A stretch of DNA of 64,000 nt from Escherichia phage RB43. The translations under genes and the position numbers were made by a program. The notes beneath the pieces are model-generated. The model was not told the origin of the DNA and did no database searches. It saw only the letters and a list, made by a program, of their open reading frames with translations. This document shows positions 17,563 through 44,256 of this stretch, in pieces (the first letter of the stretch is position 1; each line of letters opens with the position of its first letter). Location of the stretch: sequence record NC_007023.1; one strand, 5' to 3'.

Positions 17563-17947
17563 TTAAGAAAGTTTTGTCAGCTTGTAAATCGTTTGATAGC
17601 ACAAGCCTTTGATCTCGTCCAGTATGTTCTTCAATGAACTGTCTACTGATTCGTAGATATCGTTGGCTTCGGTGGCTATTTTACGGAGATACGCTACCGT
17701 GTCAAGCACATTTTCAACTTTTAATACGGGGTTTATAACGTCCTGTAATGCCTATATGGATTTCGGTGAATTTGTCTACCAAATCCTGCATATCTTCGTA
17801 AAAACCCTCGTATGCCTTATGTTGCGAATATGACCCCGTCATAAAATGTGCGCTGTGCATATACGTAACAGACATCAGGCATGTGCCAATAAAGGCATCT
17901 ATTTTACTTGTATTATCGCGCTCGACGATTTCGTTAAACGTTTGCAT
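17563..17947 (-). CDS. hypothetical protein with apparent frameshift near 17750 (weak ferritin-like 4-helix guess)
   Basis: ORF 17714-17947 continues in another frame as ALQDVINPVLKVENVLDTVAYLRKIATEANDIYESVDSSLKNILDEIKGLCYQTIYKLTKLS. Confidence 0.3.
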
Positions 17948-17957
17948 CTTTCATCCC

Positions 17958-18242
17958 TTATGAACGGTGAATAGAAGCAAATTCAGTTGCTACCCTAAGC
18001 CCTAAGCGTTTGCATTCAGGTTCAGATTTACACTGCTTCTGCTGCCATTTTCGTTCCATGTAATTATAGAATAGTTCACTGGTATTTACGCTGGGAGGGA
18101 TGGTGTCTAGATACACCTGTAGCGCTGCATTGATGTAATAGTCGAACTCTTTTGCGACCACAGAACGGTCGTCTGCTTGCGATGCTGGAGACAAAATTAA
18201 CAAACCAAACATCAGCGCTTTTGATATGCGTTTAATGTTCAT
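17958..18242 (-). CDS. small secreted protein (signal peptide ...ASQA|DD)
   Basis: 94 aa; N-terminal hydrophobic signal sequence. Confidence 0.5.
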   Translation of the reverse strand: MNIKRISKALMFGLLILSPASQADDRSVVAKEFDYYINAALQVYLDTIPPSVNTSELFYNYMERKWQQKQCKSEPECKRLGLRVATEFASIHRS

Positions 18243-18347
18243 AGCAATTCTCTAAGTGCTTACGGATCAACAATAGACCCGTTCCTGTATATATTTATAG
18301 CAAAAAAGGGGCTAAAAGCCCCTTATGTTAAATTAATCTAAAAATAC

Positions 18348-19529: not shown

Positions 19530-19711
19530 TCGCGAGATTCCCTTCTTTCATCGTCGATTAGCTGGTCGATGAAATCAACGATGTCATCAAACCAATCTAC
19601 GGCTTCTTGAGCAGAAACCGAACCTTTCCCACTACCACTCATAAAGCGTTCGCGAGCGTCAGCAAACTTTTCGAGTTTTGAATACAGCTTTTCTTTATGT
19701 TCCTGGATCAT
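19526..19711 (-). CDS. hypothetical acidic protein (61 aa)
   Basis: ORF; ATGA coupling. Confidence 0.4.
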   Translation of the reverse strand: MIQEHKEKLYSKLEKFADARERFMSGSGKGSVSAQEAVDWFDDIVDFIDQLIDDERRESRE

Positions 19712-20200
19712 GATAAATCTACCGTTTTCATGTTAACGTAGGGATCGAAATGTACCACGATGATTGGATAGTCGCCAGTGGCCTTATCAATGATGTCATA
19801 GATGCGCATCCAATCGCCCCCAGCAAGCCCCGCACCAATAAGAGGGGTAACGATAGGCAATTGAACAGGACACGCCTTAGCGCGTTCTACAGCAGATTTG
19901 AAGCATGATTCAATCGCATCATAATCGACTTGTGGGCCTTCACCCCAAAATTTGTATTGGGTGTACGCGTTAAACAGAAGTTTGTTTCCGTCCTGATAAA
20001 CGGAGTTACGCCCCAACTTAGATTGATTGCCCTTCATCGTCATTGCGTCTTCTTTAAACGCACCAGGGATCTTTTTCTTCACTTCTTTGGCGATACCCGC
20101 GCCCATGTTACCAGAAACCAGTTACCACCCCATGAATTAGGTGTACATCGCGATTAAGGAACAGTTCAACCGCGTTACCTTTGATTTCTTTAATGATCAT
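19708..20200 (-). CDS. macro-domain (ADP-ribose-binding/processing) protein, apparent frameshift near 20107-20120
   Basis: Upstream frame MIIKEIKGNAVELFLNRDVHLIHGV... joins MGAGIAKEV..., reconstructing an HGxN(C)xxxMGAGIA macro-like N-terminus. Confidence 0.45.
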
Positions 20201-20292
20201 TGTTTATTACCCATTCGATAGCCGATCCCAATAACCAGCCCCATTATAATCACAACAGTGATCAGTATTGCAAATTGCATACCTATGCTCAT
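20197..20292 (-). CDS. possible 31-aa membrane peptide
   Basis: MSIGMQFAILITVVIIMGLVIGIGYRMGNKQ; ATGA overlaps on both sides. Confidence 0.25.
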   Translation of the reverse strand: MSIGMQFAILITVVIIMGLVIGIGYRMGNKQ

Positions 20293-20435
20293 TTGAATTG
20301 ATCATCCCATATTTGCCACGCTTCCAGTTCATCATTGTATTCAGGTAATGAACGTTCGCCAGGCTTCATTAAACAGTACCATATGATAATTGCAACAGCA
20401 ATAACCATTCCATAGAAAATAATTAGTCCTATCAT
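20289..20435 (-). CDS. possible 48-aa membrane peptide
   Basis: MIGLIIFYGMVIAVAIIIWYCLMKPGERSLPEYNDELEAWQIWDDQFK; ATGA coupling. Confidence 0.3.
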   Translation of the reverse strand: MIGLIIFYGMVIAVAIIIWYCLMKPGERSLPEYNDELEAWQIWDDQFK

Positions 20436-20758
20436 CAATATAATCCTATTCCGGCGTTGTACTCGTCAACCAAGTAGGTACGCAACTTTTCACAACGTTC
20501 CTTATTTGGTGCGCTAGTACATAGTTTCATCATCGGTTCAGACTGCAAAAACTCACGCTGTTTAGCCAGCTTTTGACGCTTAACCAGGTGCGCGTTTTCT
20601 TCGCCCCACACATAAGCAGCGTCCAGTTGTTCCGCGATCACCTGATAACATACAGCAGTATCTTTAATGTCGCGATGGTCGCAGAGTTCAGAAAGACGGT
20701 TGTCGTCTGCATACGCGAAACCAGAAACCAGAGTCAATAAAAGCGCAAGTTTTTTCAT
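20435..20758 (-). CDS. small secreted protein (signal peptide ...GFAYA|DD)
   Basis: 107 aa; N-terminal signal sequence. Confidence 0.5.
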   Translation of the reverse strand: MKKLALLLTLVSGFAYADDNRLSELCDHRDIKDTAVCYQVIAEQLDAAYVWGEENAHLVKRQKLAKQREFLQSEPMMKLCTSAPNKERCEKLRTYLVDEYNAGIGLY

Positions 20759-20759
20759 G

Positions 20760-21425
20760 TTAACCTCGATATGTCACGTCTTCGATAGGGTTATAGTAAT
20801 GATTCTTGCAAATATACGCAAGTGTTTTTCGTAGGCTTGCGCTGGCAAACAGAGGATCGCGGTTGTACGTCATAGAACGATAGGTGTGTACTTCCCAGAC
20901 TTCCCGATCAGTATCATACACGAAGCAATAGCTTTCATATTCAGACAGCATATGATCCATGATGTCGAAATACAGTTGTTTGTTTTCGTTCATCTTAACA
21001 AACGGCTTGATCAACTTGATTGCTTCATAAACCTGGTCAAGATTGCTATGGTCTTCATTCATCGCAACACGAATAACTGATTGATTCGTGTCTGGATTAT
21101 ATGTGTTGGTTGCAACACCAAGTTCATAAAAGAAGTTAGCAGCATCGCGATATGTTTCACCACCAGTGCGGGGAGAATTCAGGTAATACTCAATACGTTT
21201 TTCTACAGAGGAACTCCGCATAATGACGGCCTTTATGTCATCAATTCGTTCCTGCAAGTCAATACGCTTTTTGTTTAGTTCCGTAGCACGTTTTTGGAGT
21301 GGTTCAAGCTGGGTTCTTACTTCGTCAAACTCACTTGTAATGGCTGTCAACTGCTTTTCTAAGGTTTGGCTCAACATAGAAGTTGCGTTTTCGTTTACCT
21401 TATTCATAGCTTCTGCGTATGTCAT
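20760..21425 (-). CDS. hypothetical protein (221 aa; N-terminal coiled coil)
   Basis: ORF. Confidence 0.5.
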   Translation of the reverse strand: MTYAEAMNKVNENATSMLSQTLEKQLTAITSEFDEVRTQLEPLQKRATELNKKRIDLQERIDDIKAVIMRSSSVEKRIEYYLNSPRTGGETYRDAANFFYELGVATNTYNPDTNQSVIRVAMNEDHSNLDQVYEAIKLIKPFVKMNENKQLYFDIMDHMLSEYESYCFVYDTDREVWEVHTYRSMTYNRDPLFASASLRKTLAYICKNHYYNPIEDVTYRG

Positions 21426-21427
21426 GA

Positions 21428-21829
21428 TTATTCCCCTAATACATATTCAAAACGATGTTCCAGCGCATCATTAACGCTTTCGTAAACTCCCCCAATACGT
21501 GTAGCCTTACGAATGCCGGACTTGACAATATTCATGATCTCGACGTTACTACCCCAAACATTCAGGTTGAAATACAATTCGCAATCGATCGGATGGTCGT
21601 TTGTGTCGTAATACATGTCACAACCTTCGCAAACAAACAGTGTACGCTTTTCGTCGCCATACTGGAAGTGAATGTTAAACGCAGACATACTATCTTTATC
21701 AACAGTAATGTCAATGATGCGAACCTTTGGGTTGCTTTTCAGTTCGGTAAGAACACTTTGGATAACATGCAGAGTGTTCAGCTTGACAATCCCTACTCTG
21801 CCTACAATGACTCGATGTGATGTACTCAT
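21428..21829 (-). CDS. hypothetical protein (133 aa)
   Basis: ORF downstream of promoter element F. Confidence 0.5.
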   Translation of the reverse strand: MSTSHRVIVGRVGIVKLNTLHVIQSVLTELKSNPKVRIIDITVDKDSMSAFNIHFQYGDEKRTLFVCEGCDMYYDTNDHPIDCELYFNLNVWGSNVEIMNIVKSGIRKATRIGGVYESVNDALEHRFEYVLGE

Positions 21830-21896
21830 AATTTAATCCTCAATGGTTGATGCACACATAATAAAAAAGCCCCTGCAAAAATGCAAGGGCTTTTGA
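21830..21896 (-). promoter_or_regulatory. PeSL-like element F (TTGCAT-17-TATTAT with hairpin GCCCCTGCA...TGCAAGGGC)
   Basis: -35 at 21881-21886, -10 at 21858-21863 (minus strand). Confidence 0.5.
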
Positions 21897-22532
21897 TCAA
21901 ATAATTTGCTTTTCTTCTAACAGTTTCGCGGTATGGTTAACCATGCGAGCATATTCACGGGCTTCTTTCTTTCCATACTTAAAGCCAGCGTTATAACTCG
22001 CGAGCGCCTTTTTCAAGTCGCCTTTGTGGTAATCAAGCCAGTATTCCAGTTCATGAATAGCGTACTTAGAACCGCCCCGAAGGGTTTCAAGCGTTTTGAT
22101 TACTACGCGTTTGGAATATGATTTATCCATCCGTGCTAAAGCACTATTTGCGGTTACTTGCCAGCACCCGTAAGCGTGATGACCTTTCTTACCCTTTCCG
22201 GTGTTCTCACATGCGCGAGACTCGATCCAGGCAATAGCCGCTAAATGATATCCCAAACGTTTCGATTGTTCCGTTTCAACAGGTTTTGCAGTTTTGAGAT
22301 CATACTCGTTTCCGATCCTGAAAGCATACTCCAAAACCTTTTTCTGCTTTGGTGTAATTTCGTCCAGTTCCTTCACATATGATGGTGCTTTCTTGATCAC
22401 TGTTGCTTGTTGAAGCGGTAATGTTGACTGATAAGCCGGAAGTTTTTCGATGAATTCCCCAAGCGGATCTGTCTTTGCGTGACCAGAAAAAGAGCATAAG
22501 AAAATGCTGGTCGCTAAAATAATTTTCTTCAT
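21897..22532 (-). CDS. periplasmic lytic transglycosylase-like protein (SLT-type)
   Basis: Signal peptide; SLT-like AIAWIESRA...AYGCWQV...SYNAG. Confidence 0.6.
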   Translation of the reverse strand: MKKIILATSIFLCSFSGHAKTDPLGEFIEKLPAYQSTLPLQQATVIKKAPSYVKELDEITPKQKKVLEYAFRIGNEYDLKTAKPVETEQSKRLGYHLAAIAWIESRACENTGKGKKGHHAYGCWQVTANSALARMDKSYSKRVVIKTLETLRGGSKYAIHELEYWLDYHKGDLKKALASYNAGFKYGKKEAREYARMVNHTAKLLEEKQII

Positions 22533-23560: not shown

Positions 23561-24910
23561 TTAAAAGTTATCTTCGACGAATGCAGCGAGTCGCCCACGA
23601 TATACGGTATCCAGGATCACATGACTTGAATGACCGTACTCTTTAAGTTTTTCAACCGCATACACAAAACCGTTGTTTACGGCAGTGTTGCGCGGGTTGT
23701 CAATCTGTTTAATGTTCCCGCATAGTATCAGAAGTGTGTTCTCACCGCAACGGGAAATGATGGATTTAATTTCGTGATTGCTCAAGTTTTGACATTCATC
23801 AACAATCAGAACGGAACCTTTACCCGGATCAGGATGCCCGATTGAGCGCCCACGGAAGTAATACAGGCTGGGGAACTGTACAACGCCTTTCTCTAACAGC
23901 CCTTCGACGTACTTATCAACTTCCGGTTGATCTTTAAACAGAATGTTCAGGCTTGTAATACATGGTTCAATAGACGGTCGTAATTTTTCTCCCAGTGTAC
24001 CAGGTAAGAACCCGATTTCGCCCGACAGTGGGCTATCCGATTTTACATACATCACATTAGCAAAATGACCAGCATTTACCAGGTGCATAGCACCAGCAAC
24101 CGCCAGCATTGTTTTACCGGAACCAGCCGCGCCCATAATGGTCACTGCATCAATGTTTTTATCCAGAATGGAATCAACGAAAGACGCTTGCAACGCATCG
24201 CGAGGTTGAATTGTTTTCATCAGCTTGCGTTTCATCAGGTGTTCGTGTTTCAACGGCAACACTTCAAGCTGAAACTCTCCAGCATCCACCACACGCCCGA
24301 CAACCTCACCATAGGACAGGATGTATTGGTTAGGGTAGAAATCTACCTTGTAGTCGGCAAACGACGCATAGCTAATCAACGCAATATCGCCATTGTACCC
24401 AACAACATCAACGATGTTCCAGAAGTCGGTCAGTTCAATATAACCGGAATACAGAACATCACTATCTTTCAGTGTGTCATCGCCCGTGTACTGTTCAACA
24501 GGACAACCCTTAGACATTGCGATCAACAACATATTGATATCGCGGGTTACTAAGGTCGCTTTCTCCTGCAAACAGGTAGCGATAATGCGAGCATCTTGCT
24601 TATCAAGCGGGAACTCTTCACCACCGACATAATCGACGATACGCAGAGTAACGCTATCGGGTAAAGCTGGGTTTGTTTGGCCCAACGAAACCCCAGTTTG
24701 GGTAATTGCTTCATACTTCTGTCCCAGGACAATTTTAGACAGAAGTCGGATCACTAAACGTGCTTCGCGGGAAGTGTGTTCCTTTGATTTCAGGTGATCC
24801 AGTTCTTCCATTGTTGCAGCGGTAATGATGATCTCAGTACCAGGGGCAACATAAGAATAGATTGAATATGGGTTCGAGATTAAAACGTTGGTATCTAGAA
24901 CATATTTCAT
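23561..24910 (-). CDS. phoH: PhoH-family ATPase with N-terminal PIN domain (YlaK/PhoH2-like)
   Basis: PIN-like MKYVLDTNVLISNP; Walker A GAAGSGKT; Walker B LIVDECQNL. Confidence 0.85.
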   Translation of the reverse strand: MKYVLDTNVLISNPYSIYSYVAPGTEIIITAATMEELDHLKSKEHTSREARLVIRLLSKIVLGQKYEAITQTGVSLGQTNPALPDSVTLRIVDYVGGEEFPLDKQDARIIATCLQEKATLVTRDINMLLIAMSKGCPVEQYTGDDTLKDSDVLYSGYIELTDFWNIVDVVGYNGDIALISYASFADYKVDFYPNQYILSYGEVVGRVVDAGEFQLEVLPLKHEHLMKRKLMKTIQPRDALQASFVDSILDKNIDAVTIMGAAGSGKTMLAVAGAMHLVNAGHFANVMYVKSDSPLSGEIGFLPGTLGEKLRPSIEPCITSLNILFKDQPEVDKYVEGLLEKGVVQFPSLYYFRGRSIGHPDPGKGSVLIVDECQNLSNHEIKSIISRCGENTLLILCGNIKQIDNPRNTAVNNGFVYAVEKLKEYGHSSHVILDTVYRGRLAAFVEDNF

Positions 24911-25029
24911 AGAAGTTTTCCTGTTAATTGCGAGGTACGCGGATTCGCACCCCGCGTACTGCAATTACATACCCAAACGGATAATGTGAATGTATGGGAA
25001 AGGATGCAGGTTACTATTTCTCATGCAGA

Positions 25030-25422
25030 TCATGAGTGTTTGAACCAGTTCCCAACGGTCATCAAATTTTGTATTACATTCATCAAAATCAGATTGATCG
25101 CCTGATGCTTGATACTTCTACCACGAAAGATTGTGGTTAAATCCTGTCTAGCAGACAGCAGCATCAGATTTTCACAGTCGGCTTCATATCGTTGGGCTTC
25201 ACCTACTGCAAGTTGCTTTGTCGGGGCAACATAGATGTTCAGTGTACCTTTCGACTGTCTGATAATTTCAAACGCCGCTTTCGTTTTACCAGATCGACGG
25301 CCCATATCAAGCGCCGTTTCAAACGCCGCAACGCCCGTTGTATCTGCTTGTCCTTCCATTACGCGCATCAGGTGCATATTGCGCGATTGCTTAACAGCAT
25401 CAACGTAAAATTTTGAAAACAT
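25030..25422 (-). CDS. hypothetical protein (130 aa)
   Basis: ORF; GRRSGKT is only Walker-A-like, not canonical. Confidence 0.4.
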   Translation of the reverse strand: MFSKFYVDAVKQSRNMHLMRVMEGQADTTGVAAFETALDMGRRSGKTKAAFEIIRQSKGTLNIYVAPTKQLAVGEAQRYEADCENLMLLSARQDLTTIFRGRSIKHQAINLILMNVIQNLMTVGNWFKHS

Positions 25423-25431
25423 GGTGAGTCC

Positions 25432-25827
25432 TTATGCAAGTTCAATATGCGGTGCGTCGATGAATTTTGTTTCGATCGGAAGATTAGGATCATTCTTCCA
25501 GTTGATACCGAAACGCAGTTTCACACCGAGTTCATCACCAGCTTTTTTCATTGCATTCAGAACAGGCAACCACACTTTCGGGTTTTTCTGCCAACCTTCC
25601 GGCAGTTTGCTAGGATACAGATCCACAGCATCGCCTGTAATGTGTTTTGAATTCATGGTTTGTGACGCGCCAGTGCGAACGTATTCGCGTTGCTGTTCGA
25701 CGGTACGCAATCCTTCACGTACACCGAAATCTTCTGGGGATAGCTCCAGAGCGCGTTGTACAACCTTAACCAGTTCAGGTTTAACACCTTTCAGGTTATT
25801 GATACTTTTTTTGGCTAATTTAAACAT
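25432..25827 (-). CDS. peptidase M15 family peptidoglycan hydrolase (L-Ala-D-Glu / D-Ala-D-Ala peptidase); endolysin candidate
   Basis: 131 aa; Zn-ligand pattern SKHITGDAVDL and DAPHIEL. Confidence 0.7.
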   Translation of the reverse strand: MFKLAKKSINNLKGVKPELVKVVQRALELSPEDFGVREGLRTVEQQREYVRTGASQTMNSKHITGDAVDLYPSKLPEGWQKNPKVWLPVLNAMKKAGDELGVKLRFGINWKNDPNLPIETKFIDAPHIELA

Positions 25828-25893
25828 ACATACCTCTTTATGAAAATACCCTATGGGTTACACAGGGTATTTACGGTTTAAGAGGCGCAACGA

Positions 25894-26316
25894 TTACATG
25901 TCGTACAGAGCATCTTCCGCACGACGAACGATCCATTCACGGTGCATTTTACGGCTAGTCTCTCTCAGTTCGGGAGGGAGTTGGTCGTTGTTGATTTGGT
26001 CAACATATTCCTGTGCATCTTTTTTACTCAGGAAAAGTGCGTGGAAGTTATAATTATTGCGCCCTATTACATTGTGGTCCATTAAAGACATATGTTGACG
26101 ACCTTCCCAATCATCATAAACGGTGATCGCGTCAACGAACAACCCTATACTCAAGTGCTGGAAAGGTAATCCAGTGATAATTTTTTTGGGACCCATTTCA
26201 GCTTTAACACCATTGATGCTAAAAACTTCATACAGGATAGCGCCAGGTTTGATGTCTTTAAGTTGAGCACGTTTTTCAAAAGCATTCATAATATATTCCT
26301 CACAATTAGTTTTCAT
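25894..26316 (-). CDS. hypothetical protein (140 aa)
   Basis: ORF. Confidence 0.5.
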   Translation of the reverse strand: MKTNCEEYIMNAFEKRAQLKDIKPGAILYEVFSINGVKAEMGPKKIITGLPFQHLSIGLFVDAITVYDDWEGRQHMSLMDHNVIGRNNYNFHALFLSKKDAQEYVDQINNDQLPPELRETSRKMHREWIVRRAEDALYDM

Positions 26317-26344
26317 ATACAGATTATCATAATCTGTTTTGGTG

Positions 26345-26665
26345 TCAACAAGGTTTATCGTTTTTTGATGGAAAAGTTAACTGGAACAGGCGATCATGTA
26401 GTGCGTCGATGCGTTCACATGCCTGTTTCAGTATGACTTTATCACCCGCGCTTGTTGTCTCAATGCAGCCTAATTCGTCTGCGTCGATCGCTATAACGTC
26501 ATCCATCAGGGAAGCAAAAACGTTAGCGTCAGGGTGTGTCAGTTCCTGTATCTCCGCTTGCATCCCGTCATGTTGGGATAACAGTTCAATGATATCTCTT
26601 TGCAGATCTCCCTGGTACGGGAAGCCTGTTTGAAGATGGTTAATGATTCTCTCTGCTTTGGTCAT
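26345..26665 (-). CDS. hypothetical acidic protein (106 aa)
   Basis: ORF; terminator hairpin 26676-26698 upstream. Confidence 0.5.
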   Translation of the reverse strand: MTKAERIINHLQTGFPYQGDLQRDIIELLSQHDGMQAEIQELTHPDANVFASLMDDVIAIDADELGCIETTSAGDKVILKQACERIDALHDRLFQLTFPSKNDKPC

Positions 26666-27040: not shown

Positions 27041-27310
27041 CTATTCGAAACGAATCGTGCTATTTTTGAAAAATAATCCAGAGCATACCGCACCAGCGAT
27101 CGGCTTACCGTTTACACCTGTTGCGGTGAATCCGGTTGCGTATGTATCCTTTTCAGAACAGGAAAACCAGCTATATCCTGTGAACTGAATATTCGAATAC
27201 CCTTGCGCTTCCAGGATACGTTGTGCTTCTCGTTCATCGGTACAGCCTGATTGCAATAAAACGAGAACCACAACCAGTAATACACATCCAATAACTTTAA
27301 ACATAATCAC
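27041..27310 (-). CDS. putative lipoprotein (signal peptide with ...LLQSGC lipobox-like site)
   Basis: 89 aa; hydrophobic N-terminus ending at Cys. Confidence 0.45.
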   Translation of the reverse strand: MIMFKVIGCVLLVVVLVLLQSGCTDEREAQRILEAQGYSNIQFTGYSWFSCSEKDTYATGFTATGVNGKPIAGAVCSGLFFKNSTIRFE

Positions 27311-28715: not shown

Positions 28716-29870
28716 TTTAACTCCACTGCATAAACATCGGTTTCAGGGGCTTTGTGTACGCGCATATCTTTACCACATACCGCATAAGCCGGACAGTTGC
28801 GACAACCGTTATGATCCGTGTTGCCTGTCAGTTCTTTACGGAACTGTTTTGTTCGCGGGTGTTCCCAGATATCTTTGATAAAAATCATCTGCTTCCAGAA
28901 CGTTCAAACCTTCGCCCCAGCCACCTTCAACCCAACGTTCGGTAAACGAGCAAGGGAAGAATTCGCCTTTTTCGTTGATGTAAGAGCTAAACATCGTCGC
29001 TTCGCAATCTTCCGCATACTGCTTGTATTGTTCGAAGTTCGGGTGTCCCTCCATCGCTTCAACGAAAGCGGGTGCTGAACAACTATCGAATCCAAATCCT
29101 ACACCAGAATCGAGGCAATATTCAACAAGTTTTTTGTATTGTTCGCGGGTGACGGTATCCCAGTTCTTACCGCGTCCCTTTTGTTTCAGACCCAGGAACA
29201 CGATCGCATTGACTTGTTTCAGGCGTGGATCGTTACGCACGGCATCAACAACGGTAAACGCATCATCATAGGTCTTTGAGCTAACCATGAAATGTAGGTT
29301 GATTTGCTGTTGTCCTGCTTCTGCCAGGTTCGCTACGGAATCGAAAGCAACATCGAAGCCAGCATGTTTATACACCGATACCGCAACAGCCCCAGCAACC
29401 GCCGCTAAACGCGCTGCAACGTCTTTTGATACATCAGCAATGGTAAGGTTCGGCACAATGCCTTTAGAACGCGCATAGGCCATCATATCAAACATATCAG
29501 GGTTTGTTTGTCCCTGTGCATCAGCACCGAGTGCGCATTGGGTTAACCAGGGCATTTTATCAATGATGGATTTGAAAGAAGCGAGATCCATATTGTAGCC
29601 GTTCGGGTTATTGGACTTGTAACAGAACCCACACAGCTTACCAGCAGGACCGTTGCATTTGGTAGTGACCTCAATATCGAGAATCTCAGGGAATGGGGCA
29701 TAAGTCGGATCGTTGTCAAAGGTTGTACCCCAACGAGCAAACTGACCAGTTTTAACGTTGAAATCGTAATTGTACCATTTGGATCTAGCGTGGCGCATAT
29801 CTCCAGCCTGGTAGATAAACAACGTAGGCGCTTTCATAACAGTATGTGCATTATTCATAATATTTCTCAA
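28712..29870 (-). CDS. putative Fe-S / radical-SAM-like enzyme (non-canonical CX7CX2C), apparent frameshift at A5 run ~28885-28895
   Basis: TTKCNGPAGKLCGFCY cluster; C-terminal continuation in another frame adds CRNCPAYAVCGKD Cys motif. Confidence 0.35.
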
Positions 29871-34708: not shown

Positions 34709-35118
34709 GATGTATATCCCACAAGTTTAGTAAGGAGGTGTCCCATAGTCTTACGCGCATGATCGCGGATTTCGCTATAAGGAACATATTTGAAACCGTC
34801 CATTTCTGTAATGGTTCGACCGTTCTTCACGAACGTTGACGCACAGAAACATTTATCGGCTTCGGGGTAATTATCGCCTTTGTAGATGAACAATGCAAGT
34901 TTTTTCTTACTTGTATAATCCAAAACACCCAGGCTGATCAGTTGGTCAGGACGCACTTCGAAACCAGTTTCTTCGAAGCATTCGCGAATAGCAGCATCAT
35001 ATGGGCTTTCACCCTTTTCTACATGCCCCTTTGGAATATCCCAGTGGGGCGTTTCGGTAGCGTGACCCATTAGAATACTGCCGTTATTCAGAAAGAGAAT
35101 ACCAGCAGATAATTCCAT
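34705..35118 (-). CDS. Nudix hydrolase (MutT/NudE-like)
   Basis: Nudix box GHVEKGESPYDAAIRECFEETGFEV; position comparable to T4 nudE region as I recall it. Confidence 0.85.
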   Translation of the reverse strand: MELSAGILFLNNGSILMGHATETPHWDIPKGHVEKGESPYDAAIRECFEETGFEVRPDQLISLGVLDYTSKKKLALFIYKGDNYPEADKCFCASTFVKNGRTITEMDGFKYVPYSEIRDHARKTMGHLLTKLVGYTS

Positions 35119-35354
35119 TATGCGTTTCCTGAACTAAATTTCTCGTCGTATGCGGAAAGCGCATTATCTGCACGTTTTTTCGCTTCTGTATGTCCACGGC
35201 TATCATTGATACCGCGACGATACATTTCGATCCAGAAAGAACGTCGAGTATCTTCGTTCATTTCGGTCAGTTTAATATCGCGAAATACGTTTTGTTCTTT
35301 GATCAGTCGTGCCAGTTCAGCATCTTGTTCAGTTCTTGATAGTACAGTGTTCAT
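35118..35354 (-). CDS. hypothetical protein (78 aa)
   Basis: ORF. Confidence 0.45.
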   Translation of the reverse strand: MNTVLSRTEQDAELARLIKEQNVFRDIKLTEMNEDTRRSFWIEMYRRGINDSRGHTEAKKRADNALSAYDEKFSSGNA

Positions 35355-41935: not shown

Positions 41936-42490
41936 ATGTTATTTTCGTTCTTTCCACCAGTTGATTACAACGGTACACCAACTACTGATATCTTTCGTGA
42001 TTATCGTTTTTACTTTAATCGTGTGATCAGGAATTATAAGCCGCGTACATATCAACTGACAGGTTCATTAAGACCTGAACAATTAGCTGAAACGCTATAC
42101 GGAAACCAACAATATTATTGGGTTATCCTGATGCTCAATGACAACTATGACCCGTTTTATGGTTGGATCACAGATCAGGAAACAGCTTATCAATGCGCTG
42201 TTCAACGTTATTCAAAAGTAGGTGGTGAGCAGGTTCTTTATCACATGGATGGGAAAAACAACCGATATTACAATCTGGTTGAAGATCCTAACAACCCTGG
42301 TCATTGGTATGACAAAGGTGATAAAGACATGCGTTATTTGCAGTATCAGGGAACATTAGTCCCTATTGATATTTATGAAGACGCAGTGTTGAAAAATGAA
42401 TCAATGCGAACCATTAAGATTATTAACCCTTCGGATATTCAATCGTTTGTAAGCGATTATATCAAGGAAATGGAAAAGGCAAACACATGA
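41936..42490 (+). CDS. 53: baseplate wedge subunit gp53
   Basis: 184 aa; directly precedes and overlaps gp5. Confidence 0.65.
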   Translation: MLFSFFPPVDYNGTPTTDIFRDYRFYFNRVIRNYKPRTYQLTGSLRPEQLAETLYGNQQYYWVILMLNDNYDPFYGWITDQETAYQCAVQRYSKVGGEQVLYHMDGKNNRYYNLVEDPNNPGHWYDKGDKDMRYLQYQGTLVPIDIYEDAVLKNESMRTIKIINPSDIQSFVSDYIKEMEKANT

Positions 42491-44256
42491 AATACGGTGG
42501 AAACCCATATTCCCCTTTCTTCGAAGGGGTGGTCGAAAATGTCGATGATCCTCGTTATCTGGGGCGCGTACAAGTTCGTGTGTTCGGTGAACATCCGGCA
42601 CAGAAACAAAAATCTGAAACTATCGGTATTCCGGTAGAAGAATTGCCGTGGATGATCCCTATCCAGGACATCACAAGCGCTGCTGTATCGGGTGTGGGTT
42701 TCTCTCCTACTGGTATCGTAAGGGGTAGCTTCGTTGTAGGTTACTGGCGTGATAAATGGCATCAGGACGGGGTTATATTAGGAACCTATGCAGGACAGTA
42801 CACAGAAAAGCCGGATACGCAGAAAGGCTTCTGTGACCCTCTGGGTGAATATCCACGTTATGTGGGTAACGATGTCAACGTTCTGGCTCGTGGTGGTTTA
42901 GACGGTAAAACATCGTCAAGTGTTGTTATCCGTGATGCAAACAGCACACTCGCTGTTAATCCAGACGATAGGCCGTTAGATGAAATTCCAGAAGATAACC
43001 GACCGGATACTGGGGGCTTTACAATTGAAAAAATGATCCGTGGTGATGAAGGTATTCGATTGACATGGTATTATGATGTCAAAGGGTATACCATCGGGAT
43101 TGGACACTTTTTCTTAACCGCTCCACAAGGTACAGATCCAGCAGTTGTTAACGCAGCGTTATCTAAACAAATTGGTAGAACTGTTACGGGTGTTCCTGGA
43201 TCAATCACAGCAGAAGAAGCGGGTGTTTTATTCCAGCAAGATTTGGCTAAAGTTCGTAACGATATTCAGAATAACAGCAAAGTTCGTGAAGTTTATGTTG
43301 GGTTAAATCGCCCACGTCAAATGGCGATCGAAAACATGTGCTTCCAGATGGGTGTTGGTGGTGTCGCCAAATTTACGAATGCTCTTGCAGCAATGAAAGC
43401 ACAGGATTGGAAGACAGCCTATAATGAGTTGCGAAATTCAACATGGGCTAATCAAACTCCTGGGCGTTCTTCGCGCGTATCTAAAATCGTGTTGACAGGA
43501 AACCTTGAATCATATGGTGTTATGGTTCCAGATCCAGAAGGACGCAGTTTAAGTGCTGCTTTTTCTGGTGTTGTTTTGCAAACTGATTCAAACCCAGAAG
43601 ATCCGTTTGTTCCTGGCGATACTCGCGTAATGTTCGAAGAACCGAAATCATCGTATAACGCATCATATCCATATAACATGGTATTTGAATCACGTTCAGG
43701 GCATATTCAGGAATTCGATGATACACCAGGTTATGAACGATATAACCGAGTACACCCAGCAGGAACATATGAAGAAATTCGACCTGATGGAACCCGCGTT
43801 GTTAAAATAGTTGGTGATGATTATCTTATTGTTCAACAGGGCAGAAAGGTAAACATCAAAGGCAATTTACAAGTGGTAATTGAAGGTGACGCGTTCATTT
43901 ACAATATGGGTAACGTTCAACAGACTGTTGACGGAAACGTGACTGAGTTTGTACGCGGAAATGTTAACCAGACTGTCGAAGGTGAATACGTTGGACGCAT
44001 TAAGGGCAACGCTGAATTGACTGTTGAAAAAGATGCTACCGTAAACGTTGACCAGAATTTAATGGCTAACGTTAAACAAAACGCAACTGTTCACGTCACA
44101 GAGGATGCACTTGTTACCGCGAAAAACGCAATGATGGATATTGAGCAAGATTTCGATCTTAACGCAGAAAATATCACAATGGTTGCGCGAACAAATACAT
44201 TCATCGATTCCGGTTCTCTGACTAAGATAACTGGTGGAACGGTTCAGGTGGGTTAA
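42487..44256 (+). CDS. 5: baseplate hub subunit and tail lysozyme gp5 (cell-puncturing device)
   Basis: 589 aa; T4-lysozyme-like core YDVKGYTIGIGHF; C-terminal beta-helix VxGxxxxx repeats. Confidence 0.9.
   Translation: MKYGGNPYSPFFEGVVENVDDPRYLGRVQVRVFGEHPAQKQKSETIGIPVEELPWMIPIQDITSAAVSGVGFSPTGIVRGSFVVGYWRDKWHQDGVILGTYAGQYTEKPDTQKGFCDPLGEYPRYVGNDVNVLARGGLDGKTSSSVVIRDANSTLAVNPDDRPLDEIPEDNRPDTGGFTIEKMIRGDEGIRLTWYYDVKGYTIGIGHFFLTAPQGTDPAVVNAALSKQIGRTVTGVPGSITAEEAGVLFQQDLAKVRNDIQNNSKVREVYVGLNRPRQMAIENMCFQMGVGGVAKFTNALAAMKAQDWKTAYNELRNSTWANQTPGRSSRVSKIVLTGNLESYGVMVPDPEGRSLSAAFSGVVLQTDSNPEDPFVPGDTRVMFEEPKSSYNASYPYNMVFESRSGHIQEFDDTPGYERYNRVHPAGTYEEIRPDGTRVVKIVGDDYLIVQQGRKVNIKGNLQVVIEGDAFIYNMGNVQQTVDGNVTEFVRGNVNQTVEGEYVGRIKGNAELTVEKDATVNVDQNLMANVKQNATVHVTEDALVTAKNAMMDIEQDFDLNAENITMVARTNTFIDSGSLTKITGGTVQVG

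Follow-up and report, generated by a model that had tools for sequence, protein, structure and literature searches.

Phage RB43 uses the M15C peptidase EndoRB43 in place of T4 lysozyme e in a T4-type lysis system, and its gene follows a conserved leader with a predicted occluded ribosome-binding site

RB43, RB16, and RB49 count among the phages that a review records as having "no apparent gene e," and the lack of e in RB43 has been on record since 2010 at the latest (PMC3014915). This raises the question of which enzyme degrades the cell wall when RB43 lyses its host. One candidate, a gene for a small M15 peptidase, is located in an early block of the genome, and this location therefore raises a second question, namely how premature lysis is avoided. 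Here, we analyzed a 64,000-nt stretch of RB43 DNA (henceforth, the window), which corresponds to RB43 reference coordinates 64001-128000 as derived from the offsets of TATAAATA boxes relative to published late-promoter coordinates. In megablast searches, the window region had 99.7% DNA identity to RB43-GVA records, placing it in the genus Pseudotevenvirus.

The candidate gene is a 131-aa ORF on the minus strand (25432-25827) with an ATG start, 5 nt upstream of which lies the ribosome-binding site AAGAGG. Using an exact-sequence lookup, we found that its product is identical to YP_239135.1 / AAX78681.1 (RB43ORF159c), which is named "endolysin [Escherichia phage RB43]," and YP_239135.1 is the accession assigned to EndoRB43 (PMC10487532). 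The flagged gene is that of EndoRB43, which has already been purified and studied mechanistically in published work, and its identification as an endolysin is therefore known. EndoRB43 is a single-domain zinc L-alanyl-D-glutamate peptidase of MEROPS subfamily M15C and a soluble endolysin. Its original characterization is reportedly that of Mikoulinskaia et al. 2018, J Gen Virol 99:402, and a further study, judging by its title, concerns the lysis of diverse bacteria by the L,D-peptidases of RB43, RB49, and T5. The earlier note on this DNA had described the product as a 131-aa Zn-peptidase of the M15 family and a candidate endolysin. The first description is borne out by a real ORF, by its matches to PHROG 465 and to solved L-Ala-D-Glu peptidases, and by its identity to YP_239135.1, and the second by its identity to the characterized EndoRB43 and by a genome that has no e-type lysozyme gene. 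The activity check on purified protein that the note had proposed is answered by the literature, in which NMR with a synthetic muropeptide is reported to have revealed the expected peptidoglycan-bond specificity for exactly this protein (PMC8140593).

At residues 4-6, the reference RB43 endolysin has LAK and the RB43-GVA isolates have FSQ, while the rest of the protein is identical; the endolysins of relatives also start with MFKF, and the reference RB43 sequence looks like the odd one out. On the opposite (plus) strand, an antisense ORF of 140 aa (25421-25843) fully overlaps the endolysin gene and exceeds its length. Longest-ORF gene calling selects the wrong strand at this locus, and the greedy caller used here lost the endolysin gene, which makes the longer antisense ORF relevant to gene calling.

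In homology searches, EndoRB43 matched PHROG 465 "endolysin" (E 3.6e-52), the solved RB49-type peptidases 23RI (E 4.5e-27) and 8Q2G (E 2.7e-26), the T5 endolysin 2MXZ/8P3A (E 9.2e-24), and ChiX of Serratia marcescens (5OPZ; E 2.9e-19), and the orthologue is annotated as "endolysin" in related phages. The score against Pfam Peptidase_M15_4 (PF13539) was 19.2 bits and under the curated cutoff of 25, because the model is short (70 positions) and not because of a property of the family. The ORF had no similarity to Pfam Phage_lysozyme or T4 E. The H62-x6-D69 and D124-x2-H127 pattern is present in EndoRB43, with H62, D69, and H127 as the zinc ligands and the catalytic D124 three residues before the last zinc histidine. 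In an alignment with the T5 enzyme, H62, D69, D124, H127, and W110 correspond to H66, D73, D130, H133, and W114 of EndoT5, residues identified as zinc ligands, as the catalytic aspartate, and as an active-site tryptophan that is strictly conserved (PMC10487532); this solvent-exposed tryptophan is W114, W110, and W109 in the T5, RB43, and RB49 enzymes, respectively (PMC10487532). EndoRB43, a basic protein with a pI of 9.5, lacks a signal peptide and any SAR or TM segment (maximum 19-residue Kyte-Doolittle hydropathy, 0.23). Because it has no hydrophobic segment, we consider it to be of the cytoplasmic, holin-dependent type of endolysin.

We surveyed lysis genes at the scale of the whole genome, which was put together from the window and segments of HE981739 (RB43-GVA), using the T4 lysis proteins from NC_000866 as tblastn queries; among muralytic enzymes, the search covered the GH24 fold and any further M15 copy. 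T4 e had a single match in the RB43 genome, with 43% identity at 43024-43515 of the window and inside the ORF for the baseplate hub/needle protein gp5 (589 aa; 42487-44256, plus strand), which has Gp5_OB, Phage_lysozyme, and Gp5_C domains. This GH24 domain is the only domain of the T4-lysozyme type in the genome, and it is virion associated and used at infection and is not the endolysin. No second M15 copy was found in the RB43 genome.

The other components of T4-type lysis are present. A homologue of holin T is encoded outside the window (HE981739 175929-176573) and has 50% identity to T4 T and a score of 188.9 bits against PF11031 (Phage_holin_T). Inside the window, we identified a homologue of the antiholin RI, the lysis-inhibition partner of holin T (17958-18242, minus strand; tblastn against T4 rI, E 1e-8; PF24205, 90.4 bits), with an exact TATAAATA late-promoter box 50 nt upstream of the gene (18292-18299). 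Genes for PseT.3/PseT.2-type spanins adjoin pseT (HE981739 46316-46642 and 46639-46965); the i-spanin carries an N-terminal TMD, and the o-spanin carries an LVGC lipobox. A T4 rIII homologue was not detectable in RB43 by tblastn, and none of the endolysin, Vs.1, T, and RI proteins had an NCBIfam match. The presence of RI indicates that RB43 retains the T4-type lysis-inhibition machinery despite the exchanged endolysin. The statement in the earlier note that no T4 e-type lysozyme is recognizable apart from the gp5 domain is true for the window and extends to the whole genome, and the search of the remaining genome for e and t that it had recommended returned no e and the t homologue. Its remark that there was no obvious holin is correct in that holin T lies outside the window, but it missed RI, a gene for lysis timing that lies inside.

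The box upstream of the RI gene is one of only ten exact TATAAATA copies in the genome. The rI.-1 homologue (~17575-17947, minus strand) is split in the window by a 1-nt insertion near 17731 relative to HE981739, which shortens the 127-aa product to 77 aa. Either the reference isolate truly carries this frameshift, or the reference genome of 2005 contains a sequencing error.

The earlier note had also pointed to a periplasmic lytic transglycosylase at 21897-22532 as a possible contributor to lysis. The SLT-domain protein is real, with a score of 25.1 bits against Pfam SLT (cutoff, 21.3) and an N-terminal signal-like segment, but it is the orthologue of Vs.1, which T4 also carries, and a role as a substitute in lysis is unlikely. 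This 211-aa secreted protein (minus strand) has 34% identity to T4 Vs.1 (BLASTP, E 1e-18), T4 Vs.1 gets the same SLT score of 25.1 bits, and the two share the catalytic-type motif AWIES/LWQES. T4 relies on gene e for lysis despite having Vs.1 and gp5, and Vs.1 is therefore unlikely to be an alternative endolysin. From sequence comparison, this putative periplasmic transglycosylase appears to be conserved across T4-like phages.

The endolysin gene is located between the tk.4/vs/vs.1 homologues (19708-22532) and nudE (34717-35124), and tk.4-vs-vs.1...nudE is also the neighborhood of T4 e. Given that RB43 has no e and has the T4-type neighborhood and lysis partners, the endolysin gene stands in for T4 lysozyme e as a non-orthologous replacement in an otherwise T4-type lysis system. 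We are highly confident that the ORF encodes EndoRB43 as the canonical holin-dependent endolysin of RB43. It seems very improbable to us that the M15 peptidase serves another purpose, such as virion entry or superinfection/defense, and that lysis depends on Vs.1 or the lysozyme domain of gp5. Such a division of labor could draw on the SLT domain and signal peptide of Vs.1, on the similarity of vs.1 to SLT and the "some role in cell lysis" suggested for it by Nolan et al. 2006 (PMC1524935), and on the bona fide lysozyme domain of gp5, and we found no genetic evidence in the literature (knockout or amber mutant) that RB43 lysis requires ORF159c. Nevertheless, the M15 protein is small and soluble and has no virion-attachment domain, its gene lies in an e-like neighborhood and has its orthologues in the T5 endolysin family, and the purified protein shows the expected specificity for a peptidoglycan bond. 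Moreover, T4 with its own Vs.1 and gp5 still needs e. The lysis role of e is described in PMC3014915.

In lysis by EndoRB43, the enzyme, which has no export signal, would accumulate in the cytoplasm and reach the cell wall only once the inner membrane is opened by holin T, whose timing is set by the RI antiholin. There, it would cut the bond that joins L-alanine to D-glutamate in the peptidoglycan stem peptide, after which the outer membrane would be disrupted by spanins of the PseT.3/PseT.2 type. The order of these events in vivo is presumably that of T4, by analogy. RB43 is a clean example of non-orthologous displacement, in which T, RI, and the spanins were kept and a glycosidase was swapped for a stem-peptide peptidase.

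With regard to timing, of the predicted promoters that read toward the endolysin gene, the nearest is the early promoter Pe:90362, which precedes the g100-like gene one gene upstream (Nolan et al. 2006, PMC1524935). This promoter, listed in the supplement of that study, maps to 26313-26362 of the window (minus strand), with TTGACA at 26349-26344 and TAATCT at 26327-26322, consistent with the earlier assignment of the M15 gene to an early block. No late promoter was predicted at ORF159c in the same study (PMC1524935), and no entry in the Nolan et al. supplements bears the name of ORF158c to ORF160c. We found no exact TATAAATA late-promoter box upstream of the endolysin gene. A simple promoter/terminator scan identified 5 promoter-like sites near the gene versus 5.2 expected and missed the hairpin described below.

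A conserved 66-nt leader (25828-25893, minus strand) separates the g100-like gene from the endolysin gene, and for this leader we predict a fold of -24.5 kcal/mol (z -4.69 versus shuffled sequences). The predicted fold has two parts. In an outer 7-bp stem, an anti-Shine-Dalgarno (anti-SD) strand, GCCUCUU (25886-25880), pairs with the SD strand AAGAGGU (25838-25832). Within it, a 12-bp hairpin with an A-tract, a GC-stem, and a U-tract pairs 25872-25861 with 25855-25844; in the annotation of phage Miller, this inner hairpin is a terminator. A late-promoter-like TAAATA box, CGTAAATA, lies at 25875-25868 and overlaps the 5' arm of the hairpin. This box is correctly placed for a late promoter but non-canonical, and it is not among the late promoters predicted in published work (PMC1524935). 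TAAATA boxes are enriched upstream of genes; within 5-70 nt upstream of RB43 genes, the enrichment of NNTAAATA boxes with any prefix was strong (~40%, as opposed to roughly 5% expected). That zero CGTAAATA boxes were counted upstream of genes is an artifact, as the greedy caller had dropped the endolysin gene.

Across eight Pseudotevenvirus phages, all stem positions of the leader are invariant and, hence, do not provide covariation support. Changes are confined to the loop or, in GuL6 and EC-W2, make the stem stronger or longer. Leader identity is 97.9%, compared with 68% at third codon positions of the endolysin gene and 76-80% in the flanking genes; a neighboring intergenic region is likewise conserved (92%). 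The leader matched no Rfam family. Among the 110 genes with a recognizable SD, the endolysin gene ranked 7th in predicted SD occlusion, with a probability of 0.16 that the SD is unpaired versus a median of 0.52. By a cruder accessibility metric (-14 to +3 in all 270 called ORFs), the endolysin gene ranked 58th of 270; many of the top entries by this metric have no SD and are probably mis-called starts, and the 110 SD-bearing genes are the refined test.

The T4 gene e leader, for which the mechanism is documented (PMC3014915), folds alike, with its ribosome-binding site paired beside a box of the late-promoter type. For an M15 gene in Bragavirus, the AUG is predicted to be buried in a 14-bp hairpin that begins inside a AATAAATA box (z -4.1), and the M15 leader of an RB49-like phage has a weaker version of the fold (z -1.5). 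We also considered that RB43 might have retained the T4 e leader itself. The alignment of the two leaders scored 17 (p 0.063; rank 57 of 994 T4 windows), and we dropped homology and kept the architectural analogy.

From the fold and its conservation, we infer that the leader could restrict expression of the endolysin to late times. In this model, the inner hairpin would halt early transcripts, and the anti-SD clamp would silence those that read through. A late promoter of the TAAATA type inside the hairpin would give rise to a translatable late mRNA, because a T4-style start ~6 nt downstream of CGTAAATA would produce an mRNA that lacks both inhibitory strands. More broadly, we tentatively propose, while leaning slightly against it, that the M15 endolysin genes of e-less T4-like phages (the RB43 group, Bragavirus, and possibly the RB49 group) acquired a late-only translational switch of the T4 e type. 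Such a switch would rely on a helix that masks either the start codon or the ribosome-binding site of early read-through transcripts and on a late-promoter-type TAAATA box within the helix that yields open late mRNAs. It appears to be undescribed for M15 leaders, because the 2010 review of gene e leaders lists these phages only as e-less (PMC3014915).

We see about an even chance that the leader is instead an intrinsic terminator of the upstream early gene followed by a ribosome-binding site, with the anti-SD pairing and the TAAATA box being coincidental and the endolysin being made from read-through or upstream late transcripts. The layout of the inner hairpin is classic for a terminator and is annotated as such in Miller, and the high conservation of the adjoining intergenic region, the lack of covariation, the lack of CGTAAATA among published late promoters, and the p value for similarity to the T4 e leader all fit with this explanation. 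However, coincidence accounts less readily for an outer stem that matches the SD exactly and is invariant although synonymous sites are only 68% identical, for an SD occlusion among the top 7 of 110 genes, and for the enrichment of NNTAAATA boxes upstream of RB43 genes. It also accounts less readily for the independent M15 lineage in Bragavirus, in which a hairpin starting inside AATAAATA hides the start codon, and for T4 e, which follows the same logic. On balance, a plain terminator is at least as likely as the leader switch. If the late-only switch were confirmed, the timing logic that guards against premature lysis would have been maintained or re-invented whichever enzyme is used, and this would be relevant to the engineering of T4-like therapeutic phages.

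Predicted SD occlusion is also among the highest in the genome for the spanin genes (o-spanin, 5th of 110; i-spanin, 12th of 110), which could result from gene overlap or hint at a general translational damping of lysis genes. The start codon of holin T is preceded, at 38 nt, by a GATAAATA box and then a GC-rich hairpin, TCGGGG...CCCCGA (HE981739 ~175,890-175,930). Hairpins also follow several other late-type boxes in RB43, and an arrangement of promoter/terminator or 5'-stem-loop type may therefore recur in this genome.

Three further genes of the region, all on the minus strand, have features of note. Two genes downstream of the endolysin gene, 23561-24964 encodes a fusion of a PIN domain and a PhoH-like ATPase (PF13638, PF02562; PHROG 2765). 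The 89-aa ORF at 27041-27310 (PHROG 902; no Pfam match) has a hydrophobic N-terminus that ends in LLQSGC, resembling a lipoprotein signal. The 344-aa ORF at 28836-29870 has a cysteine motif, CNGPAGKLCGFC, that resembles those of radical-SAM enzymes and no Pfam match at E <= 0.01.

Compared with known systems, the ORF in the window does not differ at the protein level from the published EndoRB43, to which its amino acid sequence is identical. Klebsiella and Cronobacter relatives have 85-87% identity to the RB43 endolysin, and the 131-aa endolysin of Klebsiella phage KP27 is also among the closest known systems. EndoT5 (2MXZ / 8P3A) shares with it the M15C fold family, the zinc ligands, the catalytic Asp, the conserved Trp, and the bond specificity, and T5-like endolysins have about 43-44% identity to it (tblastn). 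EndoT5 is Ca2+ activated via a regulatory loop, whereas EndoRB43 and EndoRB49 are not regulated by calcium (PMC10487532), and the loop between W110 and D124 is shorter in RB43 and different from that in EndoT5. The RB49-type enzymes (8Q2G and 23RI) are only about half identical to EndoRB43 and have a shorter C-terminus, with the zinc His at position 117 instead of 127. ChiX (5OPZ) is a homologous L-Ala-D-Glu zinc endopeptidase from S. marcescens, which we take to be a bacterial enzyme co-opted for chitinase secretion and not a phage lysis protein. T4 e, finally, encodes a GH24 glycosidase that acts on the sugar backbone, whereas the RB43 enzyme is a metallopeptidase that acts on the stem peptide; the folds are unrelated, the two proteins have no detectable sequence similarity, and their leaders are not significantly similar. 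What the two endolysins have in common is their role, their partners (T holin, RI, and spanins), a comparable gene neighborhood, and the architecture of the leader.
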